Part shown: positions 22,910 through 62,554 of the stretch, in pieces | Position numbering within the stretch: position 1 is the first letter of the stretch | How the letters are laid out: each line of letters starts with the position of its first letter | NCBI GenBank assembly: GCA_004298385.1 | Contig: SCTX01000040.1 | Span: forward strand, 32,571-96,570 | Direction of reading: 5' to 3' | Source: Betaproteobacteria bacterium | GTDB taxonomy: Bacteria; Pseudomonadota; Gammaproteobacteria; Burkholderiales; SG8-39 | DNA length: 64,000 nucleotides | The notes under the pieces: model-generated | Told to the model about the DNA's origin: nothing | The model's input: the letters and a program-made list of their open reading frames with translations, nothing else | The model's database searches: none | Made by a program: the position numbers and the translations under genes

Positions 22910-22969
22910 TGCGACGGTATCGATGCAAAACGAATAGCCTCACTCGAACGCCACATTCCTGGTCGTCCG

Positions 22970-25228: not shown

Positions 25229-26623
25229 TTACGTCCGAGATACTCCCGACGCCGTTCGCAATCCAGAGTAACCGAGCATCAAACCAAATGATACCCAAAG
25301 TATGGGATCAACGTAACTACCGTACCTTCCCAGTGCCCCTAGCAGCACACCAGAGAACGATGCAGTGAGAAGACATAGCCTGGTCTGCTCTTTGGAAGAT
25401 GTGAGCCTGCCATTGCCAGATCTTACGAACTTGAAGACATGGAGGATTGGTACCACCAGCGCCCCTATAAATAGAGCCGTACCAGCCAGACCGGTCTCCG
25501 AGAGCAGTCTTATTAGGAGTCCAGACCCATCCATCGCGTTGAGCTCCAACGAGCCCCCAGAATCACCTAGGAAAAGAGGTGCCTGCGTCATATATGAAAT
25601 TGGATGGCACCCGATTCCGACCCCTAACAAAATGTTCTCCTTAAGGCTTTCCAGCATGACCTCTCTGTTCGTGGCGATTGCTAAAGAGCTTACCGAATCG
25701 GTAGAGATATACTCCCATCGATTTCCTCCAGAAAATACGATATCGATCGTACCTAACCGTTCAGATGCGTCCTCACCGAAGTACAAGAAGAATATCGCAA
25801 TCAGCACGCAACCAAAAAGCAATTGCCACAATAGTAATTTAATTGTTCCGATCCCACCGCGTCCAATTAGCGTCCAGGCAACGACCATGACCACGAAAAG
25901 CTCAAAGATTCCTATCAAAGAGCCAGCGACAAAATATGCAAGAACAGTAACGATCGCTACCGGTAGTGATACTAGCTCAGCTACCGAAAGGCGAACGCGC
26001 CTCCCGAATGCTCCGACCCGCGCCAGCACGATTCCCAACACGGGCCCTAATACTCGAATCAGGTGTGCGGGCTCGCTCAGAACACTACTCACCCTGGCGA
26101 GACCTCCAGTTGAGCCGGGGAACCGCCAGATTTCCCCACCTGCTATTTCATTAAGGAATCCAAAGGTAAGCAGGTCCTCCCTCCCTGCAAGATTCCATGC
26201 TACAGACTGTGCCACCGCTATAGATGCCGTCAGCGCCATAACCCAACTGAGCCGCCTAATTAGCAGCTTGGAATCGACTAGCCATCGGCGCAGACAAGAA
26301 GCAAGCACGATCGCGAACGTAGCAGCTACAGCGATTCCAAACAATTGGTACCAGGGTCTCGCACCCATCTCTTCAAACGAGTATGGCCCAGCCAGAATGC
26401 CGATCAACGAAAACGCTGCAAATGTTGCCATCAATTTCGTCGACAAAACTGGGCTGCGCCAGCCCCAGCTTTCCGGCAAAATCCGCTGGTTCCCAAACAA
26501 GCAGGTTATGTCAGCGGTAAACATCGCCACATATGCCGCTGCCATGTACGGACCGAAGGCAAACGTTCCAATGGTTTGAATTGGAGCTAGGAAACACGCC
26601 AGCGAAATAAAAAATGTTACCAA
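25229..26623 (-). CDS. Polytopic membrane protein, candidate Wzy-type repeat-unit polymerase
   Basis: 464 aa, strongly hydrophobic throughout, located inside the glycan cassette. ORF begins with TTG, so the true start is uncertain. Confidence 0.5.
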   Translation of the reverse strand: MVTFFISLACFLAPIQTIGTFAFGPYMAAAYVAMFTADITCLFGNQRILPESWGWRSPVLSTKLMATFAAFSLIGILAGPYSFEEMGARPWYQLFGIAVAATFAIVLASCLRRWLVDSKLLIRRLSWVMALTASIAVAQSVAWNLAGREDLLTFGFLNEIAGGEIWRFPGSTGGLARVSSVLSEPAHLIRVLGPVLGIVLARVGAFGRRVRLSVAELVSLPVAIVTVLAYFVAGSLIGIFELFVVMVVAWTLIGRGGIGTIKLLLWQLLFGCVLIAIFFLYFGEDASERLGTIDIVFSGGNRWEYISTDSVSSLAIATNREVMLESLKENILLGVGIGCHPISYMTQAPLFLGDSGGSLELNAMDGSGLLIRLLSETGLAGTALFIGALVVPILHVFKFVRSGNGRLTSSKEQTRLCLLTASFSGVLLGALGRYGSYVDPILWVSFGLMLGYSGLRTASGVSRT

Positions 26624-27728: not shown

Positions 27729-27770
27729 TCAACCTCTACAATATAGGAATAGGTCAACAGCAAATGGTCG

Positions 27771-29500: not shown

Positions 29501-29558
29501 ATTCTTGAAGATATTTTGTTTTCGGCAACCCCCGGGAAACTTAGTGGCCACACACCAC

Positions 29559-38418: not shown

Positions 38419-39882
38419 TCAAGCCCGCGAGACCAGCTCGTCGTGGCGTCTCATCGACCCTTCCTTCAACATACTTCGGGCAAGCAATGCCGCCGGAATA
38501 ATGTAAATTATCCCGTACCCGATCACCGTGGCCCATACCACGCCCGGAATGCCTATCGTCCACGCCAAAACAATCTTCAGAACCAGCGCTGTGAGCGATG
38601 CTGCCCCGTAGAACACCGCCTGCTTACGCAGCAGTTTCCCGTTATTTAGAAGCACTGACATGACTCCGCCATAGCTCGCTAGCAGCATCCATCCGGCTAA
38701 AGCCGCGAGTAGACCTGAAGAAGGAACCAATTCCGGCCCCACCCACACCGCAACGATCCATTTTCCAAACACCAGCAGAGGTAGCACCGCAAGGATGCCA
38801 ATTCCCAAGCTCAGTACCAGCGCTCTCCTGAGTGCGTGCCTTACCCACGTATAGTCGCTACGCTCTAGCGCATCGCCGAAGGCGGGCCAAAGCGGGGCTA
38901 TAAAAAACTGGGCGACAAGCGCGATCGAAAAAAGCTTCTGTGCAATTGTATACTGGGCCACCGCACGGGGGCCCATAATCTGAGCGAGCACAAGGCCGTC
39001 GCTCGCGTTTCCGATCAGTGTGAACACCTGGAGGAGCAGGAACACTGAGCCTGCAGCAATAATCTTCTGACTCGCATTCCACTCAAAACTCTTCCACCTT
39101 GGAAGCAGCCACGGACGCGACCAGCAGAACTGAACAATCCAGTTGAAGCACGTGACGATCACAGGGGCGCCAGCCATCGCAAGTACCAGCCAGGGCAGAC
39201 CGGCTTCCAGATATATTCCGAGAATTACACCGCCCAGTCCGAGAATGCTTCCCGCGCACTGCCACAGGTTGCTCTGAAGGCCTTCCTGATAACCCATTTG
39301 CACGCGCTGCACGACACCCAGCGGGAGGCTGCACGCAAAACAGGCGACGAACACCGCTACCGCCGGACCAGATTCCTTTGTGGCGAGCTCCGATGTCACG
39401 TTGAATACCTTTGACCAGGGGACTATAGCGTAGACCGTACTAAATAGGGCGATTACCGCGACGCCTATGCCGAAAAGCATGAAAAACGCGCTGGACGTAT
39501 GCCTATGTGCAGCCTCACGATCATCCTTGCCGTTAGCCTCGATGATGGCGTTCATCAAGCCATTTCCCATACCCAGGTCGGCGAACGCGATAATCGCAAT
39601 TACCGAAGCAATCGTCATCCACAGCCCGTACCGTTCCGCTCCGAGGTAACCCACCGCAAGGGGCACTGAGACGAGCCCAGCCAGCAGCGCAACGACTTTC
39701 GCCAAGGCTGACGCAAGGGTGGCAAGCATAACCCGCCGATATCGTTCCCTTGAACGGCCTTCCGGTGTTGCCACGTCGAACGGCGTCAGACTCATCAACG
39801 ACCGAAGCTTTTGGCTATGGATATTGAATGAGCGCAACACCGCCACGAAGGAATTCATGGAACTAGGCCTGGAATGTGTCAA
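38419..39882 (-). CDS. Wzx-type oligosaccharide flippase (MOP superfamily)
   Basis: 487 aa, about 12-14 hydrophobic segments; 'LATLASALAKVVALLAGLVSVPLAVGYLGAERYGLW'. Confidence 0.7.
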   Translation of the reverse strand: MTHSRPSSMNSFVAVLRSFNIHSQKLRSLMSLTPFDVATPEGRSRERYRRVMLATLASALAKVVALLAGLVSVPLAVGYLGAERYGLWMTIASVIAIIAFADLGMGNGLMNAIIEANGKDDREAAHRHTSSAFFMLFGIGVAVIALFSTVYAIVPWSKVFNVTSELATKESGPAVAVFVACFACSLPLGVVQRVQMGYQEGLQSNLWQCAGSILGLGGVILGIYLEAGLPWLVLAMAGAPVIVTCFNWIVQFCWSRPWLLPRWKSFEWNASQKIIAAGSVFLLLQVFTLIGNASDGLVLAQIMGPRAVAQYTIAQKLFSIALVAQFFIAPLWPAFGDALERSDYTWVRHALRRALVLSLGIGILAVLPLLVFGKWIVAVWVGPELVPSSGLLAALAGWMLLASYGGVMSVLLNNGKLLRKQAVFYGAASLTALVLKIVLAWTIGIPGVVWATVIGYGIIYIIPAALLARSMLKEGSMRRHDELVSRA

Positions 39883-46320: not shown

Positions 46321-46475
46321 TTGCCCCTCCCTCGCAGGGCGCGCGTCCCGCTGCATCCCCCAAGGGGACTTCCTTCGGGGCGTCGGGACGCCGCTCGGCG
46401 AGCGGGCAGCCATGCTGCCCGAAACCCTCGCCTCGCCCCCGGCCCTCTCCCCGCAAGCGGGGCGAGGGAGAAATT
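46321..46475. repeat. Composite REP-like palindromic element, copy A (modules a-b-c)
   Basis: a: cccgctgcatcccccaaggggacttccttcggggcgtcgggacgcc; b: gctcggcgagcgggcagccatgctgcccgaaaccc; c: tcgcctcgcccccggccctctccccgcaagcggggcgaggg. Each module contains a hairpin. Confidence 0.7.
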
Positions 46476-48566: not shown

Positions 48567-49709
48567 CTACATCTTTTGACTGCCTCGCCGGCCGGGCTTT
48601 GCTGACTGACGCTTTTGGCGGGCTTGCTCTTTTTGCATGAATTCGTCGAGCCGTTGTTCAAAACCCTGTGCCCGGTCCACCGGGACGAGCAGCGGCATGG
48701 TGGCGGAGGCGTTGATCAACGCATAGTTATAGGCGGGGTTCAATGCCTTGAACTCCTCGAACCGCATTTGGGCGAACCGCGCCGCCTGGGCCAGGTCGAC
48801 CTTGGCCGATCTCGCCACCACGGTGAAGTATCTCAGGTTCGGCACTGCGGGCAGTGCGACTTGGAACGATGATGGACTCATCACGATCTGTTTCACCGCC
48901 ATCAGCCGCGGGACGTAGTTGCGCGTTTCGGCGGGCAGTTGCAGGCTCGCAAAATCCGCGGGAAGCCCTTTGGCGCGGTTGCGCTCGATCGCACGCGCGA
49001 TCTGGTCCTCACCCCAGTTGTAGGCGGCAAGCGCCAGATGCCAGTCGCCGAACTGCAAGTGCAGGTCTTGCAGGTAGTCGAGCGCGGCGGTGGTCGAAGC
49101 GACGATGTCGCGGCGGGCATCGTAGTCGTTGTTCTGCGGCAGCTTGTAGCGGCTCGCGGTGCCGGGAATAAACTGCCACAGCCCGGAGGCCTGCGCCGGG
49201 GACAGCGCGAACGGGTCGAAGCCGCTTTCGACGAAAGGCAGCAGCGCAAGTTCCGTCGGCATGCCGCGCTTCTCGATTTCTTCGATGATATGGAACAGGT
49301 AATAGCGGCTGCGCTCGAGGATTTTCGTCACCCGCTCGGGGTGCGATGCGTACCAGGCTTCGGACTGCGCTGCTTCCTTGCTCTCGATTCGTGGCAGCGC
49401 GAAGCCGGCGCGGATGCGGTCCCAGACGTCGGCGAAATGGAGTTTGGCGTTGCGCGGGTCGTTGGGGTCCGGGAGGAAATTTAGGACCAAGGCGGGAAGT
49501 TGCGCTTCGTTTGTGTTTGCCTTAGCGTCTTGCGGCTGCGCTTCGGGAGAAGCGACCGGACGCAGCGCGGCTAGTTCGGGGTCAGGAGTTACGTTGAGGA
49601 AGGGGGACGCGAAAGAGAGCGACGACGCGCATATTAGAAGTACGATTGAAAATCGTGAGAATAGGTGACAAGCTCTCCCCTCCCTTGCAGGGCGCGCGTC
49701 CCGCTGCAT
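48567..49709 (-). CDS. Lytic transglycosylase (MltD-like SLT domain)
   Basis: 'LALLPFVESGFDPFALSPAQASGLWQFIPGTA', 'AAYNWGEDQIARAI'. The only in-frame ATG (49709) lies inside REP copy B, so the start is uncertain; hydrophobic 'FSIVLLICASSLSFASP' follows. Confidence 0.7.
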   Translation of the reverse strand: MQRDARPAREGRACHLFSRFSIVLLICASSLSFASPFLNVTPDPELAALRPVASPEAQPQDAKANTNEAQLPALVLNFLPDPNDPRNAKLHFADVWDRIRAGFALPRIESKEAAQSEAWYASHPERVTKILERSRYYLFHIIEEIEKRGMPTELALLPFVESGFDPFALSPAQASGLWQFIPGTASRYKLPQNNDYDARRDIVASTTAALDYLQDLHLQFGDWHLALAAYNWGEDQIARAIERNRAKGLPADFASLQLPAETRNYVPRLMAVKQIVMSPSSFQVALPAVPNLRYFTVVARSAKVDLAQAARFAQMRFEEFKALNPAYNYALINASATMPLLVPVDRAQGFEQRLDEFMQKEQARQKRQSAKPGRRGSQKM

Positions 49710-49923
49710 CCTCCAAGGGGACTTCCTTCGGGGCGTCGGGACGCCGCTCGGCGAGCGGGCAGCATGTTGCCCGAAACCCTCGCCTCGCCCCCGGCCCTCT
49801 CCCCGCAAGCGGGGCGATGGAGAAGAACACCGTCGTTCCGGAGAGCGCTGTGAGGAAATATCTTTCTGCGACCAGCGGCGCGCGAGGAGGGTCTCCTCCT
49901 CTCCCCGCAAGCGGGGCAAGGAG
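49672..49923. repeat. Composite REP-like element, copy B (a-b-c plus an extra c hairpin)
   Basis: 49700-49819 is collinear with copy A; a second 'ctccccgcaagcggggc' hairpin lies at 49893-49923. Confidence 0.7.
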
Positions 49924-51912: not shown

Positions 51913-53151
51913 ATGAAAATGCTGACAACAAATTCGCTTGTGACACGCCGGATGTTTTCGAAGTTCGGATTCTTGCTGAGTGCATTGGCCGCGAACGCGA
52001 TCGCGCAGAGTCCTCCGGGCTCGATCCCTGTCGGGCCGATGTTCGCTTACCCGGAACTGGAAGTTGCCGCCAAGAGGGACAGCAATATCGCGCTCGTGCC
52101 GGACGCGCTGCGCAAAGCGGACACGATCTGGTACCTGCGCCCCACGGTGCGCCTAGAAGCCAAACAAGGGGTCAACATTTACGACGTGGGTTATCGCGGC
52201 GAATACGGCCGCTTTGACAGCCAGAAGACCGACGATTTCGAGAACCACGATTTCTTTGCGAACGCGAACGTGACGCTCGATGCGCGAAACAACGTCAAGC
52301 TCGGGGTCCAATATCTGGACAAAGTGGATCCGCGCGGTACCCTGAATCTGGCCGCTACGCCGACGCCGAACCAGTACCGCCAGCCCATCGTCACGGGGCT
52401 GTACACCTACGGCGCCGAAGATGCCAAAGGGAAACTGGAATTGAAAGGCGGCTACTATGACAAGCGTTACGTCAACAATCGCGATTTGGGGACCTCTGCG
52501 CTCGACCACACCAATACCGACTATGGCGGCACCTTCCTTTGGAGGGTGATGCCGAAAACCTACGCCACCTTCAATCTCCGCCAGGAAATCTACGACTACA
52601 AGCAATCGACGGTTACCCTGGACAGCACGAACACCTACGCACTCGTCGGTCTACGCTGGGAGGCTACTGCGGCCACATCGGGCAGGTTCTCGCTAGGCAA
52701 TCTGAGGAAGAAATTCGACGCGGCCGGACAAAACGCCGGGCGCCGCGACTTCTCTGGGTTTGCGTGGACGGGCGGGATCAACTGGAAACCGCTGCGCTAT
52801 TCCAGCGTCGATTTCAATACGCAGCGCAATGCTAACGACTCCACCGGTTTGGGAAATTTCACCATCAACCAGACCTATCAACTCGGTTGGACGCATGCCT
52901 GGACTAGCCGCGTCAGCTCGAATGTGACGGGAAGCTATTCGAACGACAAGTTCAACGCAGCGCCCGTCGCGGCCGCCGGTGGCGCCGACCGGGAAGACAG
53001 CACCAAATCCATAGGGCTGGGCCTCACTTATAGCGTACAGCGCTGGCTGAAAGTCGGCGCCGACTATACCCATGGCTTGCGCGACTCCAATGACAACAAC
53101 TTCGATTACAGGCGCAACCAGTTGATGTTCTTCCTTCGGGGCACGCTGTAG
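51913..53151 (+). CDS. Outer-membrane beta-barrel protein, EPS-export associated (right copy)
   Basis: Signal peptide 'FGFLLSALAANAIAQS'; paralogue of 2983..4269; start at 51913 or 51919. Confidence 0.6.
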   Translation: MKMLTTNSLVTRRMFSKFGFLLSALAANAIAQSPPGSIPVGPMFAYPELEVAAKRDSNIALVPDALRKADTIWYLRPTVRLEAKQGVNIYDVGYRGEYGRFDSQKTDDFENHDFFANANVTLDARNNVKLGVQYLDKVDPRGTLNLAATPTPNQYRQPIVTGLYTYGAEDAKGKLELKGGYYDKRYVNNRDLGTSALDHTNTDYGGTFLWRVMPKTYATFNLRQEIYDYKQSTVTLDSTNTYALVGLRWEATAATSGRFSLGNLRKKFDAAGQNAGRRDFSGFAWTGGINWKPLRYSSVDFNTQRNANDSTGLGNFTINQTYQLGWTHAWTSRVSSNVTGSYSNDKFNAAPVAAAGGADREDSTKSIGLGLTYSVQRWLKVGADYTHGLRDSNDNNFDYRRNQLMFFLRGTL

Positions 53152-53287
53152 CAAAAGCCCGGAAAATTGCTCTAAAATAACTGTTGTTGGTTATTGGCGC
53201 ACCTTGGGCGGGTGGGGCGGCGGGGTTTGTTTGGGCCGACCCGACCGCTCGTCAATGCGGTCTAATTAGGACATTCGAAGTAACACC

Positions 53288-53842
53288 ATGGGGCGACGCG
53301 TTTGGTACGTACTTGCCATAGGCTTGTTGGTCTTTTTGCCGAGGCTGGTGCATGCGCAGGCGGGCGATGATCTGCTGTCGCGCTATCGCCTGGCGTCGGG
53401 GGACGTCATTTCCATCTATGTGCTCGGCGAAGAAGAGCTCAAACGCGAAAAAGTGCGCCTCACCGACGCCGGCACCATCCAGTATGCCGTGCTCGGCGAA
53501 ATCCGCATCAAGGGGCTGACCGCGGGGGAACTGGAGCAGAAGATCACTTCCGGCCTCATCGAAAAACGCTATCTCCTGACTCCCAAGGTCAGCGTCAGCA
53601 TCGACGAATACCGCCCGTTTTTCATCAACGGCGAAGTGTACAAGCCCGGCGGCTATCCTTATGTTCCCGGGCTCACAGTGCTCAAGGCGGTATCGATCGC
53701 CGGGGGATTCAAGGATCGCGCATCCAAGAGAAACATGTTCGTGGTGCGCGACGGCGCCGCGAACGAACAGCGCAAGAAAGTGGAACTGGACACCGCGATC
53801 TATCCGGGCGATATCCTGACGGTCGAAGAAAGCTTCTTTTAG
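53288..53842 (+). CDS. Short Wza-like polysaccharide export (OPX) periplasmic protein (right copy)
   Basis: 'VLAIGLLVFLPRLVHAQAG' signal with no Cys (no lipobox); 'IDEYRPFFINGE', 'PGDILTVEESFF'. Confidence 0.8.
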   Translation: MGRRVWYVLAIGLLVFLPRLVHAQAGDDLLSRYRLASGDVISIYVLGEEELKREKVRLTDAGTIQYAVLGEIRIKGLTAGELEQKITSGLIEKRYLLTPKVSVSIDEYRPFFINGEVYKPGGYPYVPGLTVLKAVSIAGGFKDRASKRNMFVVRDGAANEQRKKVELDTAIYPGDILTVEESFF

Positions 53843-53853
53843 CAAAGCCAAAC

Positions 53854-56097
53854 ATGAAGATCGAGCAGCTTCCCGACGAAGTTTCCACCACCGATGCGCA
53901 CCCGGCGGATGCGCTATCCAGCCAACTGCGCTTCTGGCGCCGCAGCTTGGAGAAGCGCAAATGGGCGATCGCGCTGCTCACTTTGCTGATCGGCGCGGTC
54001 ACGACCTTCGTCGTCTACTCGCTCACGCCCGTCTATCGCGCGACCGCCACGCTTTACATCGAACCGGCGAAAAACAAGGTCGTCTCCATCGAGGAGGTAT
54101 ATGGCGGCGTCAGCGGCAACCGCGAGCATATCCAGACCCAGGTGGAGATACTCAAATCGCGGGAACTGGTGGACAAACTCGTCAAACGTCTGAAGCTCGC
54201 CACCGATCCGGCTATCGACCCGAGGCAAAAACCTCCTGCTCTGAATCTATCGATTCCCTGGCGCGAATGGGTTCCGGCCGGCTGGCTGCCCGAGCAGCCC
54301 GTTCCGTCCGAGGAAGCGTTGACGGATAGCGTAATCCGCTCGGTCCGTTCCAACCTCGACGTGCAACTGGTGCGTCTGAGCTTTTTGATCCGGGTGAGCT
54401 TCGAATCCACCGACAAGGTCCTCGCGGCCAAGGTGGCCAACACGCTGGGCGAGCTCTATATCGAGAACGACCTGGAGGCGCGGCTGCAGATGACGCAGAA
54501 GGCCGCTTCCTGGCTGACCGGCCGGGTCAAGGGCCTGAGAGAAACGGTCGAGAATTCCGAGCGCGCATTGCAGCAGTTCCGCGACCGGGAGAAGATCGTC
54601 GATGCAAAGGGAGTGGCGCTCGGCGCCAGCAGCCAGCTCAATACCCTGACCACCGCCATGGTCGCGGCGCGGCAGAAAGTCGCGGAGTTTGAAAACGCCT
54701 ATCGCCAGGTCCAGGCCGTGCTGAAAGGCGAATCGCGGGCGACGCTGGAGTCGATCCCGGCGGTGCTGCGCAGCCCCAGCGTCCTGCCGCTGAAGTCGGC
54801 CGAAGCCGAAGCCGAGCGCAAGCTCGCGGAACTCAGCAACCGCTACGGCGCCAATCACCCGCGCATCATCGCCGCGGAGTCCGATTTGCGCGCGGCCAAG
54901 GAAAACACGCAGAAGGCGGTCGATTCCGTGGTGTCGAGCATCACCCGCGAGTACGAGGTCGCCAAGGCGACCGAAAAAAGCATGCAATCGTCGCTGGACC
55001 GGTCGAAAACGGAAATCCAGGACATCAGCCGCAAGGAATTCCAGTTGGCGGCGCTGGAGCGCGATGTGCAAACCAACCGGCAGCTCTACGATCTGTTCGT
55101 CAACCGGGCGAAGGAGACGGGCCTCACGGGCGACCTGCAATCGACGATAGCGCGCGTGGTCGATCCGGCGATCGTGTCCGGGGTTCCGGTGAAGCCGCAG
55201 AAGTCCCTGATCATCGCGATTTCCCTGTTGATCGGATTGATGCTGGGAATCTTCCTCGCGCTGCTGCTGGAGTATCTCGACAACACCGTGCGTTCCACCG
55301 AAGATGTCGCGCTCAAGCTCGAGGTTCCGTTATTGGGGATGTTGCCCTGGGTGCCGGGCAAGCACCGCAATTTCGAGTTGCAGCGCGGATTTCTGCAGAA
55401 TTTCAGCCCGGCGTTCAGCGAAGCAGTGCGCACGCTGCGCACCGGGATTCTGATGTCGGCGCTCGACAATCCACACAAGGTCGTGTTGATCACGTCTTCG
55501 GTGCCCGAGGAAGGCAAGACCTCGGTGTCGATGAATCTTGCCTTCGCTCTGGCACAGGTCAAACGCACCTGCCTGATCGACGCGGACATGCGCCGGCCCT
55601 CGGTGTACCGGGTCATGGGCGGCGACGTCAATATGGCGGGCCTGTCCAATCTGGTGGCGAACACCGAGCCCGTGAACAAATGCGTATACGAACATGAATC
55701 GGGGCTGTTCTATATCCCCTCCGGCCCGATCCCGCCGAACCCGTCGGAACTGCTGTCGTCGAAGCGATTCAGCGACGTTCTGAAGACGCTCGAGGGGATG
55801 TTCGACGTCATCCTGATCGATTCGCCGCCGGTGCAACTGGTGAGCGATGCCACCATCCTGGCCGGCGTCGCGAACGCGCTGGTGTTCGTGGTGCGCGCCG
55901 ACGCGACGCCCTACCAGGTGGCAAAGGGCGCGATCGAGCAACTGAAGAAAGGCAAGGCGCAGTTGCTGGGCGTGGTGCTGAACCGGCTGGATGTGGAAAA
56001 GGCCGAGCGCTACTACGGTTACGGAAGATATTTCAGCTACGGCGGCAAGTACAAATATTACAAGGGTTCCGGCTATTACGGCAGCAAGAAGAGGTAA
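53854..56097 (+). CDS. Wzc-type polysaccharide co-polymerase fused to a BY-tyrosine kinase
   Basis: Two TMs flank a long, probably helical (charged-residue-rich) periplasmic domain. Walker A 'SSVPEEGKTS', A' 'LIDADMRRP', B 'VILIDSPP'; Tyr-rich tail 'RYYGYGRYFSYGGKYKYYKGSGYYGS'. Confidence 0.85.
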   Translation: MKIEQLPDEVSTTDAHPADALSSQLRFWRRSLEKRKWAIALLTLLIGAVTTFVVYSLTPVYRATATLYIEPAKNKVVSIEEVYGGVSGNREHIQTQVEILKSRELVDKLVKRLKLATDPAIDPRQKPPALNLSIPWREWVPAGWLPEQPVPSEEALTDSVIRSVRSNLDVQLVRLSFLIRVSFESTDKVLAAKVANTLGELYIENDLEARLQMTQKAASWLTGRVKGLRETVENSERALQQFRDREKIVDAKGVALGASSQLNTLTTAMVAARQKVAEFENAYRQVQAVLKGESRATLESIPAVLRSPSVLPLKSAEAEAERKLAELSNRYGANHPRIIAAESDLRAAKENTQKAVDSVVSSITREYEVAKATEKSMQSSLDRSKTEIQDISRKEFQLAALERDVQTNRQLYDLFVNRAKETGLTGDLQSTIARVVDPAIVSGVPVKPQKSLIIAISLLIGLMLGIFLALLLEYLDNTVRSTEDVALKLEVPLLGMLPWVPGKHRNFELQRGFLQNFSPAFSEAVRTLRTGILMSALDNPHKVVLITSSVPEEGKTSVSMNLAFALAQVKRTCLIDADMRRPSVYRVMGGDVNMAGLSNLVANTEPVNKCVYEHESGLFYIPSGPIPPNPSELLSSKRFSDVLKTLEGMFDVILIDSPPVQLVSDATILAGVANALVFVVRADATPYQVAKGAIEQLKKGKAQLLGVVLNRLDVEKAERYYGYGRYFSYGGKYKYYKGSGYYGSKKR

Positions 56098-56104
56098 CGC
56101 GCCA

Positions 56105-56327
56105 CCATGGACGCCGCTTCACTTGCAGAGCGCGGCGTCCCGACGCCCCGAAGGAAGTCCCCTTGGGGGATGCAGCGGGCTCGCCGCTCGGCGAGCGGGC
56201 AGCATGCTGCCCGAAACCCGCGCCTCGCCTCCAGCCCGCTGCCGCGTTGCCGGTGGATAGAGAGAAAACCCCCTCGCCCCGCTTGCGGGGACAGGGCTGG
56301 GGTGAGGGGACAACTGAAACGCAGTTG
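56105..56327. repeat. Composite REP-like element, copy C (modules a and c inverted, b direct)
   Basis: 56134-56179 is the reverse complement of module a; 56180-56219 is module b; 56270-56310 is the reverse complement of module c. An extra hairpin caactg-aaacg-cagttg follows. Confidence 0.7.
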
Positions 56328-56351
56328 TGTAATTTCCGATAGAACGCCTGC

Positions 56352-57092
56352 ATGATCGATGTCCACTGCCACCTCTTTCCAGGCATTGACGACGGGCCGG
56401 AGACGCTCGATGCCGCGATCGCGCTTGCCCGGCATGCCGTAGCCAGCGGCATCGGCACTGCGATCGTCACGCCGCACATCCTTCCGCGGCGCTATGACAA
56501 CACGCTTTCCGGCATCCACGAGGCGGCGAAGCGTTTCCGCGCAGAACTCGATGCCAGGAACATTCCACTTGCGATCGGCTACGCCGCCGAGGTGCGCATC
56601 GGCGCGGAAGTCATTGCGCTCGCCGAGGAGCAAACGCTGCCGCTGCTGGGATACGCCGACGGCTACGGCATCGTGCTGCTGGAGTTTCCCGACAGCCACA
56701 TTCTCCCGGGCAGCGACAAGCTCGCCGCGTGGCTTCTCGGCCGCAACATCCGGCCGATGATCGCCCATCCCGAGCGCAACAAGGAAGTCATGCGCAACGT
56801 CGATGCCATCGCGCCGTTCGTGCAGATGGGCTGCTGGCTGCAGCTCACCGCGGGCTCGGTGACCGGCGTGTTCGGCCCGCGCTGCCGCGAGCGTTCGCGC
56901 CAGTTGCTCGAGCGCGGCTGGGTGTACATGCTCGCCTCCGACGCGCACGACACGCCGGCGAGAATGCCGGAGCTGGAACCGGGGCGCGCCGCCGCCGCGG
57001 AGATCGTCGGCGAAGTGGAGTCCTGGCGCCTGGTGCGCGACCGCCCCGCCGCCCTCGCCGCCACCAATTGCGCGTTTGCCGAAGCGGCGTAG
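56352..57092 (+). CDS. PHP-family protein-tyrosine phosphatase (CpsB/YwqE-like)
   Basis: 'MIDVHCHLFPGIDDGP', 'IVTPH', 'IAHPERN', 'LASDAHD'. Confidence 0.8.
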   Translation: MIDVHCHLFPGIDDGPETLDAAIALARHAVASGIGTAIVTPHILPRRYDNTLSGIHEAAKRFRAELDARNIPLAIGYAAEVRIGAEVIALAEEQTLPLLGYADGYGIVLLEFPDSHILPGSDKLAAWLLGRNIRPMIAHPERNKEVMRNVDAIAPFVQMGCWLQLTAGSVTGVFGPRCRERSRQLLERGWVYMLASDAHDTPARMPELEPGRAAAAEIVGEVESWRLVRDRPAALAATNCAFAEAA

Positions 57093-57211
57093 ACGTGACA
57101 CGACGACCGCATTCGCGAGTCCCCCAAGGGGATTTCCTCCGGGGCACAAGCTCGCTCCCGCAAAAGCAGCGTTGCAGAAGCGCGCTTGCTCGCGAATGCG
57201 CAATCGCACTC

Positions 57212-57886
57212 ATGCTGCTGCTCGGATTGTTCGCTTACAAAGCAAGCACGGAAGGGCTGTCGAATTTCTACGCGCAGTCGGCGCAGCTCGAAATCGAGCG
57301 CTGGTCGAAACCCGGGCAAACACTGCGTGGGGACGAGGGGACGCGCGTGATGCAATACCTCGGAAGCAGCCTGGACCACTCGCCGAACAATCCCTGGCCT
57401 CTGGAAGTCATGGGAACGCTGCAATTGCGCAGCATGAGCGCCGCCAAGGATCCGCAGCTCGCCATGGCGGCCGCTCGCGGCGCCAACGTGAACTTCCGCA
57501 TGGCGCTGGCGCAGAGGCCGACTTCGCCTTTTGCGTGGGCAAGCCTCGCGCTGACCAAGCTTTATCTTGGCGAGCAGGACGAGGAACTGTTCCGGGCGCT
57601 CGAGCGCGCGGAGGAACTGGGCCCCTGGGAGCCCGAGGTCCAGCAAGCGGTGGTCTTCGTCGGCCTCACGCTGTGGAATCGGCTGAACCCGGCCCAACAG
57701 GCCACGGTGGTCCGGGCGATGGACCGAGGCGCGCGACGCAATCCCGGTAAAATTGCCGAAATTGCCAAAACTTTCGATCGTATTGACCTGTTTTGTGGTT
57801 TAAGCTACAGTGATTCTCAGGGTAGGGAAGTCTGTAGTTCAATCAGCAAGTCCGGGTTCGCAAAAAAGCGCGACCGACAACAATGA
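57212..57886 (+). CDS. Hypothetical membrane-anchored protein with helical-repeat-like domain
   Basis: ATG 57212 ('MLLLGLFAYKAS..'). An alternative GTG at 57095, 3 nt after the phosphatase stop, would add a basic N-terminus encoded partly by REP-like sequence. Confidence 0.45.
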   Translation: MLLLGLFAYKASTEGLSNFYAQSAQLEIERWSKPGQTLRGDEGTRVMQYLGSSLDHSPNNPWPLEVMGTLQLRSMSAAKDPQLAMAAARGANVNFRMALAQRPTSPFAWASLALTKLYLGEQDEELFRALERAEELGPWEPEVQQAVVFVGLTLWNRLNPAQQATVVRAMDRGARRNPGKIAEIAKTFDRIDLFCGLSYSDSQGREVCSSISKSGFAKKRDRQQ

Positions 57887-57899: not shown

Positions 57900-60062
57900 A
57901 TGACATTTTCCAAATCGAGCCGCTCGGTGCAGCAATCAGCCGTCTGGTGGTTGTTCGCGATGCTTGCGCTCATGTCGAACCTTGCATGGGGCGCGGTCGG
58001 TTACGTGCATGAGGCCTCGGGTGACGTGCGCGTGCAAAACGGCAGCGCCACCCCCAGGACGGTCAAGCCCGGCGATACTTTCGATCCCGGGGTAACGTTT
58101 CAGACCTCCGGAAACGGCAACGCCGTGATCAAGTTCGAGGACGGCCAGCTCGCGAAGCTGCAGCCCAATACCCTTTTCAAAGTCGATCAATACAGCTTCA
58201 ATGCGAACAATCCCAAGGCGGGCAATTCGGCGGTAAGACTTCTTCAGGGCGCGATGCGTTTCGTGACGGGCCTGATCGGTTCGACCAACCGTAATAATGT
58301 ACGCTTGGCCGCGGGCACTGCGACCATCGGCATACGCGGCTCGGACATGACGCTGGTCGTCAGTGCGGCGGGCGCGGTCGAGGCCGCGACGGTTGTTCAC
58401 GGCGGGATTGTCTTGCAGACGCCGGCAGGCGCAACCAACGTAAACGCCGGACAGTTTTCCGCGGCCCCTGTCGGACAGGCTCCGACACCGGTGGCGCCCA
58501 TTGCAGCCGCGCCGGCGGCGGTTCAGGCCGTGGTGAATACGACGGCCGCAGCGGTGCTCCCGGTGAATACGCCTGTCGCGGTCCAGGCGGCGGCGAATGC
58601 GGCGAACGCTGTCGCCGCGGCCCAGGCGGCGATAGCCGCTTCAGCTAACGCAACGGCGGCAGCGGCAGCGGCCAAGGGTGCCCCGCCGGCAGTCGCGGCA
58701 GCGGCGGCAGCCCAGGCAGCCCAGGCTTCAGCCGTAGCGGCCGCGGCGCAAGCCACGGCGGCCACGGCGCAAGTGCAGGCGAATACCCAGGCGCAGGCTG
58801 TCGTGGCTACCGCCTTCCAGGCAGGTGCGGCGCCGGCGGCGCCGCCTGCGCCGCCGGCAGCTTCGGCTGTGGCGCAGGTGGTCGCGGCAGCGGCGGCCCC
58901 GGTGGCGACGGTCGCCACGGTGCAGGCCGCGGCAGCCGCGGCGACGCAGGTGGCGGCGACTGCGGCGACGGTGGCGCAGACGGCATCGGCCCAGGCGACC
59001 AGCGCGGCGACCGCGGCGACAACGGCGGCAACGCAGGCCTCGACGGCGGCGACGCCCGCGGCGGCGCAAGCGGCAGCGGCAGCGGCGCAGACGGCGGCCA
59101 GTGCGGCCGGCGCGCAGGCGACAGCGGCAACAGCACAGGTTACGGTCGCCGCGGCGGCGACCTCGACGACGCAAGCCTCGGTGCAGGCGACGGCGCAGGC
59201 GGCGGCGACTCAGGCCACCAGCCAAGCGCAAGCAGCGACGGCGCAGGTGCAGGTGGCGGCTACCGCGGCAACGCAGGCGGCAACGGCGACGACGCCAGCA
59301 GCGGCGCAGGCGGCGGCCAGTGCGGCCAATGCGGCGGCCAGTGCGGCCAGCGCGCAAGCGGCGGCGACGACGGCGCAGGCGGCGGTAGCGTCGGTAGCGA
59401 CGACACAGGTGACGCAACAGACCGGGGCGGTGATCCAGGCGGCGCAGGCGGCGGCGACCCAGGCGAGTACGCAGGCGCAAGCGGCGACGGTGCAGTCGCA
59501 AGCGGCGACGACCGCGGCAACGCAGGCAGCAACGGCGACAACCGCGGCGGGGGCGCAGGCGGCGGCTAGCGCGGCGCAGGCGGCGGCCAGTGCGGCCGGC
59601 GCGCAAGCGTCGGCGGCGACGGCGCAGGCGACGGTGGTGGTGGCGCAGGTGACAGGACAGACTGCCCAGGCGGTGGTGGCGCAGGCGGCGGCGGCGCAGG
59701 CGACGACCGCGGCGGCCACGGCAACCCAGTCGGCAACGCAAGCGACTACGGCCGCCACCCAGGCGGTGACGGCGCCGAATGCAACAGCAGCGGCAGCAGC
59801 GGCGGCGACGGCGGGGCAAGCGGCGGTGGGCGCCGCGGCTTCGGCAGCACAGGCGGCGGCGGCGGCGCCTACAGCGGCGCCTACGGTGCCTCTGCCATTC
59901 GTCGCTCCGGCACCAGCTCCGGCGCCGGTTGTGGCACCGCCGGTTGTGGCACCGCCGGTTGTGGCACCGCCGGTTGTGGCACCGCCGGTTGTGGCACCGC
60001 CGGTGATCATCCCGCCGCCGGTCACGCCTCCGCCGATTCTGTGCGGCGGTAGTCCCTGCTGA
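57900..60062 (+). CDS. Secreted FecR-domain protein with giant Ala/Gln/Thr/Ser periodic repeat, PVVAP repeats and Cys-containing C-terminus
   Basis: ATG 57900 with gaagggg upstream; signal 'WWLFAMLALMSNLAWGAVG'; FecR-like 'GDVRVQNG..VKPGDTF..GAMRFVTG..IGIRGSDM'. Low-complexity region about 58500-59880, then (PVVAP)x5 and '..ILCGGSPC*'. Confidence 0.7.
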   Translation: MTFSKSSRSVQQSAVWWLFAMLALMSNLAWGAVGYVHEASGDVRVQNGSATPRTVKPGDTFDPGVTFQTSGNGNAVIKFEDGQLAKLQPNTLFKVDQYSFNANNPKAGNSAVRLLQGAMRFVTGLIGSTNRNNVRLAAGTATIGIRGSDMTLVVSAAGAVEAATVVHGGIVLQTPAGATNVNAGQFSAAPVGQAPTPVAPIAAAPAAVQAVVNTTAAAVLPVNTPVAVQAAANAANAVAAAQAAIAASANATAAAAAAKGAPPAVAAAAAAQAAQASAVAAAAQATAATAQVQANTQAQAVVATAFQAGAAPAAPPAPPAASAVAQVVAAAAAPVATVATVQAAAAAATQVAATAATVAQTASAQATSAATAATTAATQASTAATPAAAQAAAAAAQTAASAAGAQATAATAQVTVAAAATSTTQASVQATAQAAATQATSQAQAATAQVQVAATAATQAATATTPAAAQAAASAANAAASAASAQAAATTAQAAVASVATTQVTQQTGAVIQAAQAAATQASTQAQAATVQSQAATTAATQAATATTAAGAQAAASAAQAAASAAGAQASAATAQATVVVAQVTGQTAQAVVAQAAAAQATTAAATATQSATQATTAATQAVTAPNATAAAAAAATAGQAAVGAAASAAQAAAAAPTAAPTVPLPFVAPAPAPAPVVAPPVVAPPVVAPPVVAPPVVAPPVIIPPPVTPPPILCGGSPC
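59925..59999 (+). repeat. Perfect 15-bp tandem repeat x5 (plus a partial sixth) encoding PVVAP
   Basis: ccggttgtggcaccg repeated head-to-tail at 59925, 59940, 59955, 59970 and 59985; ccggtg continues at 60000. Confidence 0.9.
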
Positions 60063-60081
60063 TCCGGCAGAGCGCAATCCG

Positions 60082-60120
60082 CAGGCCAGGTAGCGAAAGC
60101 TACCCGGCCTGTTTCTTTTC
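60082..60120 (+). terminator. Rho-independent-type terminator directly abutting the next start codon
   Basis: caggccaggtagc-gaaa-gctacccggcctg (13-bp arms, 1 mismatch) followed by tttcttttc; ATG of the next gene at 60121. Confidence 0.5.
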
Positions 60121-61614
60121 ATGAACGCCGATTACGAGCGGCCTTGGGCAAATCGGTGGCTCTTTGTCTTCTATCTGGCGTTGCTCGTGTGGGTCCCGAT
60201 TCCGCTGGGGAGCAACCGGCCCTGGGCCTGGGCGATTCTCGAGCTTTGGGTGTTTGCGCTCGCCATCTGGTGGCTGCTCGATTTTGCGCGAGGCAAGACC
60301 CAGCCTAGTCAGGCTCTCAAGGGCGCCCGGCCGGCGTTGCTCTGCGCTTCGCTATGGCTCGGATACGTCTGGCTGCAACTGTTGCCGCTGCCGCCCGGAC
60401 TGCTGCAAGCGCTTTCGCCTGAAGCCGCGCGCGCACACGCCGCTGCGGCGTGGCCGGTCGCGACGAGCGCCGCGCCGCTGACACTGGACCAATCGGGAAC
60501 GCTCGGCGGCGCGCTGAAAAGCGCCGCGTACGTCGCGTTTTTCGCGCTGAGCCTCGCCCTGCTCGACCGGCCCGCGCGCATCGCAGTCGCCGCATACACC
60601 CTGGTCATTTCAGGCTTCGCGCAGGCGATGTACGCGGGACTTTCCGCCCTCTCTGAAGGCGGCGCGTCGGCGCACGGATCGTTCGCCAACCGCGATCACT
60701 TGGCGGGCTACCTGGTGATGTGCCTGTCCCTCGGGCTGGGGTTGTTAATTTCGAATTTGACCGGCGAGGTGTCGCGCAGTTGGAAGCAATTTTTCAGGAA
60801 CATTATCGCCTGGATCCTGAGCCCGAGGATGCTGCTGCGCCTGGCGCTGGTGGTGATGGTGACTGCCTTGGTGCTCACGCACTCGCGCATGGGCAACACT
60901 TCGTTTTTCGTGAGCCTGCTGGTCGCCGGCGCGATCGGCCTGCTGCTGGCAAAACGCGCGACCAAGTCGATGGTGGTTCTGATCGCGAGCCTGATCGTGA
61001 TCGACATTTTCATCGTCGGCGCCTATTTCGGGGTGCAGCGCGTGCTGGACCGGATCGAGCAGACGACGATGCAAGCCGAAGATCGCGACGAAATAGCCAT
61101 CGATGCGCTTCGCATGTGGAAGGACTATCCGGTATTCGGCTCGGGACTGGGTTCGTTCCAGGTGGTATTTCCGCGCTATTCGCAACAGGACCTCGGCGTG
61201 CTCTACACCCACGCGCACAACGATTACCTGCAGCTCGCCGCTGAAACCGGCGTCGTCGGGATAACGCTGCTCGGCCTGCTGGTGTTCACGTCGCTTCTGG
61301 CGGCATTGCGCGCGCAGATCATGCGCCACGACCCGCTCATGCGCGCGATTTCCTTCGCCGCGATGATGGCGATCATCGCGCTGGGAATGCACAGCGCGGT
61401 GGATTTCAATCTCCAGATCCCGGCGAATGCATTGACCTTCATGCTGCTGCTCGCGTTCGCCTGGATCTCCCTGTATCACCGGTATGACGGCGAAGCGCAA
61501 GCGGAGCCCGGTTCCCGGCGGGCCGGCGTGTCCGACCGAGGTATCGGTTCGGGACCTAATCAGTCCTCGCGACGCGGAAGCCGATATAGAAGTCGCGGTC
61601 GTCCGAGCCGATAA
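60121..61614 (+). CDS. Wzy_C-domain membrane protein (O-antigen ligase / PglL-type O-oligosaccharyltransferase family)
   Basis: Polytopic; 'GSGLGSFQVVFPRY..YTHAHNDYLQLAAETGVVG'. Arg/Ser-rich tail overlaps the convergent 61556..62554 gene by 59 nt. Confidence 0.75.
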   Translation: MNADYERPWANRWLFVFYLALLVWVPIPLGSNRPWAWAILELWVFALAIWWLLDFARGKTQPSQALKGARPALLCASLWLGYVWLQLLPLPPGLLQALSPEAARAHAAAAWPVATSAAPLTLDQSGTLGGALKSAAYVAFFALSLALLDRPARIAVAAYTLVISGFAQAMYAGLSALSEGGASAHGSFANRDHLAGYLVMCLSLGLGLLISNLTGEVSRSWKQFFRNIIAWILSPRMLLRLALVVMVTALVLTHSRMGNTSFFVSLLVAGAIGLLLAKRATKSMVVLIASLIVIDIFIVGAYFGVQRVLDRIEQTTMQAEDRDEIAIDALRMWKDYPVFGSGLGSFQVVFPRYSQQDLGVLYTHAHNDYLQLAAETGVVGITLLGLLVFTSLLAALRAQIMRHDPLMRAISFAAMMAIIALGMHSAVDFNLQIPANALTFMLLLAFAWISLYHRYDGEAQAEPGSRRAGVSDRGIGSGPNQSSRRGSRYRSRGRPSR

Positions 61615-62554
61615 AGAAGCGGAAGTCATAGCGAACGAAAGCCGGACTATCGACCCACGCGCCCCCGCGCAGCACGCGCCGGCCACACTCCCCGCTCGAG
61701 CGGTCGCCATCATCGGCGGGCGCGCCTGTGGACTCTTCGTTCAAGCAATCTTCGGTCCATTCCCAGGCATTGCCCAACATGTCGTACAGACCGAACGCGT
61801 TGGGCCGGTAGCTGCCGACCGGTGCCGTGTAGGCGTGCTTATCGTTGCATTCGTGGAATGTCCAGCTAGCAGTACCGGGGACATCGCGCTTCGCGGCCGC
61901 ATCGGCCACGTTGGCGTAACGGCAGGCAGCGCCCGGATTGTCGTCCCAGGGCCGGGACGTCGGATTGCCCGCGCGCGCGGCGTATTCCCACTCCATCTCG
62001 GTAGGCAGGCGATAGCGTTTGCCCGTTTTCTTCGTCAGCCACTCGGTGTAAGCCTTGGCATCATTCCAGTTGACGCAGACCACCGGCTCCTTATCCGTTT
62101 GCGCAAAGCCCGGATTGCGCCAGTCCTTGGACGCATCCTGCTGGTACCCGCCGCCGTTCCAGGCAAAGCAGCCGCCGCTTGGCGTATGGCCGCTTTCCCG
62201 CGCGAAACGCGCGAACTGCGCCCTGGTCACTTCGTATTTGCCCACGCCGATCGCGCTCGGTATCGCCACCGACTGCTGCGACTCTCCGCGATCCATGCGT
62301 CCCGCCTCGTTTTCGGACGAGCCCACGCTCAAGTTCCCCGGCGGGATCACCACTACCTCCGGGCAAGCGGCGCAGTCGCGAAACACCGTCCCCGCCGCGA
62401 GGCGCTGCAAATTGTGCTGCCGCGTCTGCACCGTCGCCGGCGCGACCCCGGGATTGCGTTGCTGCGCGAGTAGATGCGAACTGCCCAGTGCCAGCAGTAG
62501 TGCGGCAAGTATCCAGTGGAGAATGCCGGAAAACAGGGTGGCCTCCCTGACCAC
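61556..62554 (-). CDS. Secreted formylglycine-generating-enzyme-family (SUMF1/FGE-sulfatase domain) protein
   Basis: Signal 'ILHWILAALLLALGSSHLLAQQ'; 'YRLPTEMEWEYAARAG', 'RVLRGGAWVDSP'. Confidence 0.8.
   Translation of the reverse strand: MVREATLFSGILHWILAALLLALGSSHLLAQQRNPGVAPATVQTRQHNLQRLAAGTVFRDCAACPEVVVIPPGNLSVGSSENEAGRMDRGESQQSVAIPSAIGVGKYEVTRAQFARFARESGHTPSGGCFAWNGGGYQQDASKDWRNPGFAQTDKEPVVCVNWNDAKAYTEWLTKKTGKRYRLPTEMEWEYAARAGNPTSRPWDDNPGAACRYANVADAAAKRDVPGTASWTFHECNDKHAYTAPVGSYRPNAFGLYDMLGNAWEWTEDCLNEESTGAPADDGDRSSGECGRRVLRGGAWVDSPAFVRYDFRFFIGSDDRDFYIGFRVARTD

Follow-up and report, generated by a model that had tools for sequence, protein, structure and literature searches.

Organization of the locus

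The DNA analysed here (the window) is a 64-kb stretch of contig SCTX01000040.1 (GenBank assembly GCA_004298385.1) from a betaproteobacterium, and it carries a complete Wzx/Wzy-type polysaccharide locus. Our subject is a pair of adjacent genes at 57900–61614, the first encoding a secreted FecR-domain protein with a long Ala/Gln/Thr-rich (A/Q/T) stalk (the stalk protein) and the second a membrane enzyme of the Wzy_C family. The pair forms the end of a vps-2-like operon for Wzx/Wzy-dependent exopolysaccharide (EPS) export (Table 1). The order of the export genes within 51913..57092 recurs in loci L002–L007, in a Vibrio (L163) and in Vibrio cholerae (L164; L-numbers denote the homologous loci compared in this study), and the product of the gene directly before the pair matches V. 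cholerae VpsP with an E-value of 2e-16.

The stalk gene starts with an ATG at 57900, with a ribosome-binding site, gaagggg, 7 nt 5' of it, and ends with a stop codon at 60060–60062. Its reading frame is backed by complete orthologous open reading frames (ORFs) of 716 and 1062 amino acids (aa) in L002 and L004, which likewise end in CGGSPC. Antisense and out-of-frame ORFs over the repeat, such as an Arg-rich one on the minus strand at 58728–60122, were rejected as artefacts of a GC-rich repeat, the relatives keeping only the plus-strand frame. An earlier interpretation made from the sequence alone (the sequence-only reading) had divided the ORF into a signal peptide, a FecR N-domain, an A/Q/T stalk, PVVAP repeats and an ILCGGSPC end, and all of these parts were found. 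The N-terminus (MTFSKSSRSVQQSAVWWLFAMLALMSNLAWG, followed by AV) looks like a Sec signal, with cleavage predicted between AWG and A.

The full-length stalk protein returned no match in Pfam or NCBIfam scans because of its compositional bias. With the isolated N-domain (aa 1–217), PF04773 (FecR) matched aa 67–168 at 31.7 bits, above the gathering cutoff of 24 (E 2e-7), and the fold agrees with this assignment, which the sequence-only reading had also made. An AlphaFold2 (AF2) model of P0003, a 344-aa homolog with 68% identity, was built from 68 sequences (pLDDT 89) and comprises a beta-sandwich (41–196), a helix, a confident helical hairpin (235–295, pLDDT 96–98) and a disordered tail. Its sandwich pairs in Foldseek with the FecR-type domains of PupR (CCSSD, 6ovk) and BDI_1681 (4m0n), at E-values of 5e-6 to 1.6e-4, and by way of this homolog model the predicted FecR-type fold is confirmed. 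The first ~60 residues of the sandwich also align with the 'cell surface anchoring domain' of MpIBP (5ix9; 62 residues, 1.3 Å, 27% identity), which the sequence profile of the N-domain matches at E 2e-7. Within the domain, R146 and G147 of an RGSD motif (aa 146–149, 58335–58346) are invariant in the family, and T148 and D149 are nearly so. Anti-sigma factors of the FecR type, FoxR among them, cleave themselves at a conserved Gly-Thr.

The second protein of the pair scores 83.7 bits against PF04932 (threshold 31.7). It has about 12 hydrophobic segments and a large loop (303–377) that contains H366, and its Wzy_C signature, YTHAHNDYLQLAAETG, lies at aa 362–377; the polytopic Wzy_C character ascribed to it beforehand was thus borne out. 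Four residues are invariant in 20 enzyme orthologs, namely R256 (SRMGN), R311, H366 (AHNDY) and H424, and identity within the subfamily ranges from 35 to 88%. An assignment as PglL-like had been proposed as well, but the marker of that group, PglL_A (PF15864), was unmatched in the enzyme in Pfam scans up to E = 10. Searches against the PDB gave no match by single sequence or by a 20-sequence profile, neither WaaL nor any other relative being returned. The best NCBIfam scores, 27.6 bits for TfpM against a cutoff of 600 and an equally weak 27 bits for an EPS polymerase model, are uninformative. The last ~17 basic residues of the enzyme (SSRRGSRYRSRGRPSR) are unmatched in relatives, which is suggestive only, most rows of the comparison being tblastn match segments and not full ORFs. 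The end of the gene overlaps by 59 bp (61556–61614) with a convergent FGE-sulfatase-family gene (61556–62554, minus strand).

Table 1. Features of the stalk protein–enzyme pair and of the surrounding polysaccharide locus
Feature	Position	Strand	Basis or remark
FecR-tail ('stalk') protein gene	57900..60062	+	720 aa; positional counterpart of Vibrio rbmEF
Predicted signal peptide, aa 1–31	57900..57992 (preceding 57993)	+	Sequence features and helix 8–26 in AF2 model
FecR-type beta-sandwich, aa 32–197	57993..58490	+	PF04773, Foldseek and 5ix9 profile match
Helix and A/Q-rich helical hairpin, aa 198–307, with NTPV motif	58491..58820	+	Family-conserved
Lineage-specific expanded A/Q/T stalk, aa 323–654	58866..59861	+	TRF, unit alignment, AF2, autocorrelation
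Disordered Pro/Val/Ala tail, aa 655–714	59862..60041	+	pLDDT 36–52; TRF
C-terminal motif CGGSPC; S718, near-invariant Ser at –3, candidate attachment site	60042..60059	+	Homolog counts
RbmD-family Wzy_C membrane enzyme	60121..61614	+	497 aa; PF04932 E 1.5e-23; ~12 transmembrane (TM) segments
Promoter-like site TTGACC-17-TACAGT	57783..57811	+	~90 nt 5' of stalk ATG, in 3' end of VpsP-like gene; consensus scan only
Intrinsic-terminator-like hairpin and U-tract	60081..60120	+	Between stalk and Wzy_C genes; dG –32.5 kcal/mol, z –5.1
VpsM/EpsL-like barrel (BBP2_2)	51913–53151	+	Pfam, NCBIfam
Short Wza	53288–53842	+	Pfam, NCBIfam
Wzc	53854–56097	+	Pfam, NCBIfam
CpsB phosphatase	56352–57092	+	Pfam, NCBIfam
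VpsP-like protein	57212..57886	+	NCBIfam VpsP 80 bits, below cutoff 125; start codon uncertain
Initiating transferase	13317–14747	–	Same cluster as Wzx
Second polytopic Wzy-like protein, candidate true repeat-unit polymerase	25229..26623	–	At least 9 TM segments, large loop
Wzx	38419–39882	–	Same cluster as initiating transferase

Relationship to vps-2 and rbmDEF of Vibrio

A protein search in annotated replicons located in Vibrio sp. THAF64 an operon of a barrel, Wza, Wzc, VpsP (238 bits against the cutoff of 125), a 191-aa tail protein ending in ...GGGTASPN and a Wzy_C enzyme. Homologs of this tail protein, all annotated as hypothetical, occur in V. coralliilyticus, V. mimicus, V. anguillarum, V. 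vulnificus and V. cholerae. The V. cholerae tail and enzyme genes are located between vpsL-M-N-O-P-Q and rbmC-rbmB-rbmA, which is the position of rbmF/rbmE and rbmD. In Vibrio, rbmDEF consistently shares a location with vps-2, and rbmE and rbmF frequently form a single gene (bioRxiv 10.1101/2024.08.19.608685). The enzyme of the window shares 36% identity over 422 aa (E 2e-84) with V. cholerae RbmD (L164:9782-11095, flanked by rbmC/B/A and vpsL-Q), and this full-length homology, together with co-location with vps-2-type genes (51913–57886), places it in the RbmD family. The stalk protein has the attributes of an RbmEF-like tail protein: it carries a signal peptide, its gene immediately precedes that of the enzyme, its tail is of low complexity, and Ser stands at position –3 from the C-terminus. 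The gene pair is thereby shown to be a betaproteobacterial variant of the vps-2/rbmDEF module, and the architecture that had appeared unfamiliar in the sequence-only reading is not isolated. Judged by position and C-terminal motif, the stalk protein is the betaproteobacterial equivalent of Vibrio RbmEF.

The V. cholerae system (RbmD, VC0931; RbmE/RbmF, VC0932-0933) resembles that of the window in its enzyme homolog, in its VpsM-like barrel, Wza/VpsN, Wzc/VpsO and VpsP neighbours, and in the gene just upstream of the enzyme, which has a hairpin after it and specifies a protein with a signal peptide, a low-complexity tail and Ser at –3. The Vibrio tail protein, however, is only ~200 aa long, with helical repeats, a TAAG motif and the ...GGGTASPN end, whereas in the stalk protein a FecR beta-sandwich and a helical hairpin are followed by 330 residues of A/Q/T expansion, then by (PVVAP)5 and a CGGSPC end. 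A further difference is the presence of a CpsB-type phosphatase in the betaproteobacterial operon. Deletion of rbmD alters the architecture of the V. cholerae biofilm while the biofilm itself is retained, and the effect of RbmD on RbmA depends on vps-I (PMC6901666); the mechanism of RbmD was still called unclear in 2021 (PMC8295476). Literature searches on VpsP, on LapG with O-antigen ligase and on FecR with ligase returned nothing relevant.

Conservation of the gene pair and of a C-terminal serine

With the N-domain of the stalk protein as query, 127 relatives were found, nearly all of 250–350 aa, which have in common a signal peptide, a FecR domain, an NTPVV motif, an Ala/Gln-rich segment and a Pro/Thr/Gly-rich low-complexity tail. 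A genome scan with the FecR-tail gene yielded 80 loci, all from betaproteobacterial metagenome-assembled genomes. VpsP adjoins the FecR-tail gene in 50 of the 80, and a Wzy_C homolog is found within 8 kb of it in 31, mostly directly downstream and in three operon arrangements, so that the pairing first remarked on in the window is conserved elsewhere. For the reciprocal scan a 20-sequence alignment of the enzyme was run against metagenomes; more than 548 relatives were obtained, and 52 loci with upstream flank were kept. A signal-peptide protein with a low-complexity tail is encoded directly upstream of the enzyme in 27 of these 52 loci, 10 being of the FecR type and 17 having unrelated helical-repeat N-parts, and in five loci VpsP lies directly upstream of the enzyme or is fused to it. 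Single ORFs in L097 (3477–5966) and L110 (2521–4605) match both VpsP and RbmD-family profiles; such fusion of the two genes argues for a direct cooperation of VpsP with the enzyme. At L093 (3770–5771), two proteins with PEP-CTERM-like ends (a hydrophobic stretch, then Arg-rich) are encoded upstream of an RbmD-family enzyme.

At the C-terminus, Ser occupies position –3 in 90 of 110 homologs, against a background Ser content of 6–9%. In the FecR loci linked to EPS genes it does so in 41 of 45 (GSPC, TASPN, ASPS, ASGS, ASNR and other endings), with Ser making up 6% of the preceding tail, but among the 28 FecR paralogs that lack EPS genes the count is 9. The non-FecR tail proteins upstream of the enzyme have Ser at –3 in 12 of 17 cases and within –3 to –5 in all 17, and the ...GGGTASPN ending is common to Vibrio RbmEF-like proteins and betaproteobacterial FecR-tail proteins. 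No other ORF of the 64-kb stretch has an ending like that of the stalk protein. At the level of sequence, these comparisons show that it is the C-terminal tail, and neither the stalk nor the FecR domain, that accompanies the enzyme when the N-domains are unrelated.

The FecR paralogs without EPS genes nearby, from Gallionella, Nitrosomonadales and Sulfuricella, have two other types of C-terminus: a Gly/Ala/Val hydrophobic stretch with a short polar end (TTTHH, SSTTNH and similar), or a CLTCH(N/A)K motif that resembles a heme-binding site (CxxCH). They lie at L028, L035, L037, L044, L046, L047, L051, L056, L057, L064 and L074, and at L053, L060, L070 and L078. The lack of EPS genes near these paralogs points to different uses of the same N-domain.

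Structure and origin of the A/Q/T stalk

The helix and helical hairpin that follow the sandwich (aa 198–307) were modelled with pLDDT 87–96 in the stalk protein itself and 96–98 in P0003, and N223, P225 and Ala positions within them are invariant across the family. Over the ~460 residues of aa 196–660, the stalk consists of 51% A, 15% T, 12.5% Q, 8.6% V, 4.5% S and 3.7% P; K259 is the sole charged residue in aa 191–720, and 93 Ser/Thr residues lie within aa 196–720. The three repeat units recognized in the sequence-only reading start in frame (59031, 59271 and 59520; aa 378, 458 and 541), and pairwise they share 60–67% identity in protein and 68–72% in DNA. TRF reports a 249-bp period with 2.8 copies at 59013–59693, and the autocorrelation of the stalk peaks at lag 83 and lag 7. 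For aa 323–654 AF2 predicts five helices of 27–80 residues, four of them of 60–80 (pLDDT 62–77), with breaks that fall at the T-P/T-T-A sites bounding the repeats; disorder is predicted just for aa 655–720. The PVVAP unit in this disordered part spans 59923–60004 (TRF: 15 bp, 5.5 copies, 100% identity), and its five perfect codon repeats and the terminal ILCGGSPC are present as described earlier; L002 has three full copies.

The long stalk occurs only in the closest relatives (716 aa in L002, >542 aa in L003 and 1062 aa in L004), most members of the FecR-tail family being 250–350 aa long and without the A/Q/T expansion. It is thus no trait of the family but a helical element recently expanded in tandem, and the unit alignments show the 460-aa stalk to be, on sequence grounds, the product of recent tandem duplication of 80–83-aa units. 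The stalk probably serves as a spacer rather than as a mucin-like array of acceptor sites.

Between the window and L002, the stalk (58821–59861) is 98.6% identical in protein and the FecR domain 90.3%, the low-complexity part being unexpectedly better kept than the globular one; the stalk is thus not evolving like a loose linker. DNA identity to L002 is 94–97% in the stalk versus 86–93% in its flanks. Recent transfer was considered as the cause of the high stalk identity, but the DNA identity is just modestly above that of the flanks. AAG and TAAG strings inside the stalk were dismissed as the chance expectation in a sequence that is 51% Ala.

Association with LapG and LapD in Gammaproteobacteria

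In at least eight gammaproteobacterial loci (L116, L117, L119, L132, L137, L144, L147 and Pseudoalteromonas THAF3) the tail and enzyme genes come directly after lapG and lapD, and L135 has a partial lapD. Pfam scans of four of these loci (L117, L137, L144 and L147) found Peptidase_C93 and LapD_MoxY_N+GGDEF+EAL in all. The tail proteins of the lapG-lapD loci carry a [PQA]TA[AG]G motif just before the tail. LapG cuts di-alanine sites, e.g. PAAG and AAAG (PMC6890996), and the combination of a TAAG site with an adjacent lapG-lapD suggests regulated release in some gammaproteobacterial versions. L116 also has a convergent VpsP-CpsB-Wzc, and L162, with the order lapG-lapD-tail-enzyme, lies beside vps-1-like genes.

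No lapG or lapD homologs were found in the 64-kb stretch, nor in the betaproteobacterial loci except for L087 and a weak match in L046, and the FecR-tail family has no conserved TAAG after the hairpin. A conserved 'RLxAGTATIG' segment of the stalk protein (58299–58310; aa 134–137 RLAA, then G138) holds an AAG about 30 residues past the part that resembles the LapA/MpIBP anchoring domain. A LapG-like site is conceivable there, yet the segment is modelled as a beta-strand and no lapG is nearby.

Predicted expression signals and the glycan operon

The terminator-like hairpin between the two genes has a 13-bp stem (12 paired, with one bulge per side) and a GAAA loop. A hairpin with a U-tract stands at the same spot in 18 of 25 FecR-tail loci, the stem sequences being unrelated, and a hairpin was also seen 3' of four of the six gammaproteobacterial tail genes examined, with a clear U-run in three and a weaker one in V. 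cholerae. Together with the promoter-like site upstream of the stalk gene (Table 1), this hairpin suggests that the tail protein is produced in excess of the enzyme. Such an excess, as predicted from these signals, is what one would expect of a substrate relative to the enzyme that modifies it.

On the minus strand, 13–40 kb of the window encodes the initiating transferase, glycosyltransferases, sugar-modifying enzymes and Wzx. The second polytopic Wzy-like protein of the locus (25229–26623) belongs to this glycosyltransferase operon; it shows a weak colinear match to the Wzy_C motif region, has no Pfam match and has 2 relatives among 5.8e9 proteins. The Wzy_C enzyme is therefore not the sole polymerase candidate, and it is probably not the polymerase of the locus. 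In line with this, V. cholerae keeps its biofilm when the homologous rbmD is deleted (PMC6901666). It is not the only Wzy-like protein of the cluster, and its more than 548 relatives stand against 2 for the other, a contrast between a well-conserved subfamily and an orphan that a ligase with a conserved acceptor fits better than does a repeat-unit-specific polymerase. The GC content of the glycosyltransferase operon (16000–30000) is 50–54%, compared with 59–64% over most of the stretch and 73.5% in the bin of the stalk. The low GC and the near-orphan Wzy-like gene suggest that the operon may be a serotype-like glycan cassette that is exchanged horizontally and lies next to a conserved export operon.

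Comparison with known transferase and anchoring systems

Genes for O-oligosaccharyltransferases (O-OTases) adjoin those of their acceptors, directly downstream (PMC3643930, PMC9829042). TfpO (PilO) and TfpM glycosylate the C-terminal Ser/Thr of a pilin, and TfpM can move long polymers (PMC9829042, PMC3643930). The pair described here is like theirs in having a Wzy_C-only enzyme (~420–470 aa in TfpO/TfpM), encoded immediately downstream of the candidate acceptor, and in a candidate acceptor hydroxyl at the C-terminal end. In CGGSPC the Ser sits within a short loop between two Cys, reminiscent of the disulfide loop of pilins. The pair is unlike them in that the candidate acceptor has a FecR domain and is no type IV pilin, in the Wzc/Wza export operon that surrounds it and in the TfpM score given above. 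PglL genes adjoin target genes in many genomes (PMC3643930), and PglL has a Wzy_C core with conserved Arg/His and acceptor Ser residues in flexible Ala/Pro-rich regions (PMC3643930). Its length of 550–600 aa differs, however, from the 497 aa of the enzyme, which also has no PF15864 match.

With respect to the N-domain, the 5ix9 match likens the stalk protein to the retention module of LapA and MpIBP, but the NCBIfam model retention_LapA (NF033682) gave 25 bits against a cutoff of 50, the signal is of the Sec type, and no RTX or type I secretion (T1SS) features are present. The periplasmic domain of FecR/PupR anti-sigma factors is alike in PF04773, in fold and in a conserved RG[TS]D motif; the stalk protein lacks the anti-sigma N-domain, the TM segment and the STN-type partner context. 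As for WaaL, the enzyme gene lies outside any core-lipopolysaccharide (core-LPS) cluster and within an EPS export operon, and its product has no PDB sequence match.

A model for the gene pair and its alternatives

Our preferred reading, to which we give a little less than even confidence, is that an RbmD-type ligase uses the C-terminal Ser of the tail protein as the attachment point of the exopolysaccharide, with stalk and tail as spacer and the N-part as anchor; we infer the glycan transfer, the Ser site and the anchoring role. The stalk protein would be exported by Sec and would outnumber the enzyme, since its gene has a promoter-like site to itself and a terminator, taken to be leaky, precedes the enzyme gene. 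The RbmD-like enzyme would move an undecaprenyl-PP-linked polysaccharide or repeat unit onto the hydroxyl of S718 in CGGSPC, a site proposed from the precedent of TfpO and TfpM, whose substrate is the C-terminal Ser/Thr of a pilin encoded just upstream. The folded FecR sandwich and the helical part would hold the conjugate in the envelope, while the uncharged A/Q/T helices and the Pro-rich tail would provide the spacer.

Several observations weigh against this model. No family member, RbmD included, has biochemical proof of protein glycosylation, and RbmD rejected UndPP-diNAcBac, a donor taken by virtually all tested O-OTases, its authors raising a non-OTase role (PMC6901666). The candidate Ser stands at –3, whereas that of TfpO/TfpM acceptors is the last residue. 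The pair is not obligatory: one enzyme of 74–75% identity (L084) directly follows VpsP, about 20 of the 52 enzyme loci have neither a tail gene nor VpsP directly upstream, and 14 loci of the Sel1-VpsP-FecR type (e.g. L011, L013, L017 and L018) are without the enzyme in the available flank of up to 8 kb. An hhalign comparison of the RbmEF-like alignment with the C-halves of FecR-tail proteins found no homology (probability 2.7%), and the model does not account for the relation between a periplasmic glycoprotein and export through Wza and the barrel.

The strongest competitor holds that the enzyme acts elsewhere, be it as a further polymerase, by ending chains or as a ligase with some other acceptor in lipid or wall, and that the stalk protein is an unglycosylated periplasmic or matrix scaffold whose C-terminal peptide is a docking or sorting signal. 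VpsP as the enzyme's most constant neighbour, the VpsP-enzyme fusions in L097 and L110, the many enzyme loci without a tail gene and the weak match to the EPS polymerase model all speak for it, as do the unconfirmed O-OTase activity of RbmD and its noted relation to WaaL and SEDS proteins (PMC6901666). We nevertheless consider it rather unlikely: a separate orphan Wzy-like gene is present in the glycan operon, deletion of rbmD leaves the biofilm in place, and a docking signal does not explain an invariant hydroxyl residue in an Ala-Ser-Pro context. The acceptor contexts of PglL-type OTases are rich in Ala, Ser and Pro and so resemble the setting of the tail Ser. A proline beside the target Ser is key in AniA (PMC3643930). 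A bolder variant of the preferred reading makes the tail protein a leash: with EPS on its C-terminal Ser, the uncharged low-complexity tail would follow the polymer through the Wza/VpsM-type outer-membrane pore while the N-domain, a FecR sandwich in the stalk protein and helical repeats in Vibrio, stayed behind as a periplasmic stopper, as in LapA retention. Matrix polysaccharide would in this way be tethered to the cell, and in Gammaproteobacteria LapG/LapD would cut at TAAG when c-di-GMP falls, which would release the polymer. We regard the leash as unlikely, although it would, if true, give a function to RbmD, RbmE and RbmF and explain the cell association of VPS-type polymers.

The remaining explanations fare worse. 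The sequence-only reading saw in the A/Q/T/S stalk a dedicated, massively multivalent O-glycosylation array, mucin-like and served by a PglL-like transferase; 93 Ser/Thr residues beside a Wzy_C gene would suit this, and Ala/Ser/Pro-rich low-complexity regions are typical PglL targets (PMC3643930). This proposal we find improbable, as the stalk is confined to the closest relatives in a family whose members mostly measure 250–350 aa, is predicted to form long helices with a confident hairpin as its conserved core and a lag-7 periodicity that fits helices, and is 98.6% identical to that of L002; the enzyme lacks PF15864, and it is the C-terminal tail that tracks with it. Still less probable is that the Wzy_C protein, as a WaaL-type ligase, joins the polysaccharide to lipid A-core (K-LPS-like) and has no relation to the stalk protein. 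A Wzy_C domain with conserved Arg/His is found in WaaL too, but the gene lies outside a core-LPS cluster, its product has no PDB sequence match, and its link to vps-2-type export genes and tail proteins is steady. That the FecR domain marks an anti-sigma regulator of cell-surface signalling, for which the Pfam match and the similarity to the PupR fold might be cited, is hardly credible and effectively refuted by the domain architecture, in which a cleavable signal peptide replaces the cytoplasmic anti-sigma domain and TM segment. The context is an EPS operon, and no ECF sigma factor or TonB-dependent transducer was seen among the genes scanned on either side, the stretch not being annotated gene by gene.

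The genes rbmD, rbmE and rbmF have been counted since 2007 among those of the best-studied biofilm cluster in bacteria, but no mechanism has been assigned to them, RbmD being called OTase-like with no known substrate and RbmE/F having no assigned function. Our comparison draws attention to a single conserved residue, to one conserved pair of genes and, for some lineages, to a LapG/LapD switch next to it, and so provides a testable hypothesis for RbmD and RbmEF. If ligation to the tail Ser is true, the pair would be a fifth class of O-linking transferase and acceptor, built into a Wzc/Wza export operon, and would offer a way of tethering exopolysaccharide to cells; its short C-terminal tag might be usable for bioconjugates. 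If it is false, the conserved C-terminal motif still needs explaining. The stalk protein shows the tolerance of the module: exchange of the N-domain is possible, and a helical spacer without charges can reach 330–870 residues. The gene pair and the final six residues are what is informative here, rather than the stalk.

Repeated elements and other features of the window

A 26-nt, partly palindromic element, GCCCCGAAGGAAGTCCCCTTGGGGGA, occurs four times (46356–46381, 49709–49734, 56145–56170 and 57120–57145), where none is expected by chance, and looks like a REP-type repeat. Two inverted copies flank the CpsB gene, and in the bins that contain them identity to L002 collapses to 16.7% (56101–56400) and 62.9% (57001–57300), which suggests insertions in the present DNA. 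One REP-like copy lies just 5' of the ATG at 57212 of the VpsP-like gene. At 57185–57215, this gene has no canonical start 5' of its predicted membrane segment, and the ATG at 57212, the first in frame, cuts the segment short. Two AAA_14/DUF4143 ATPase genes lie side by side at 9365–11874, on the edge of the polysaccharide locus.

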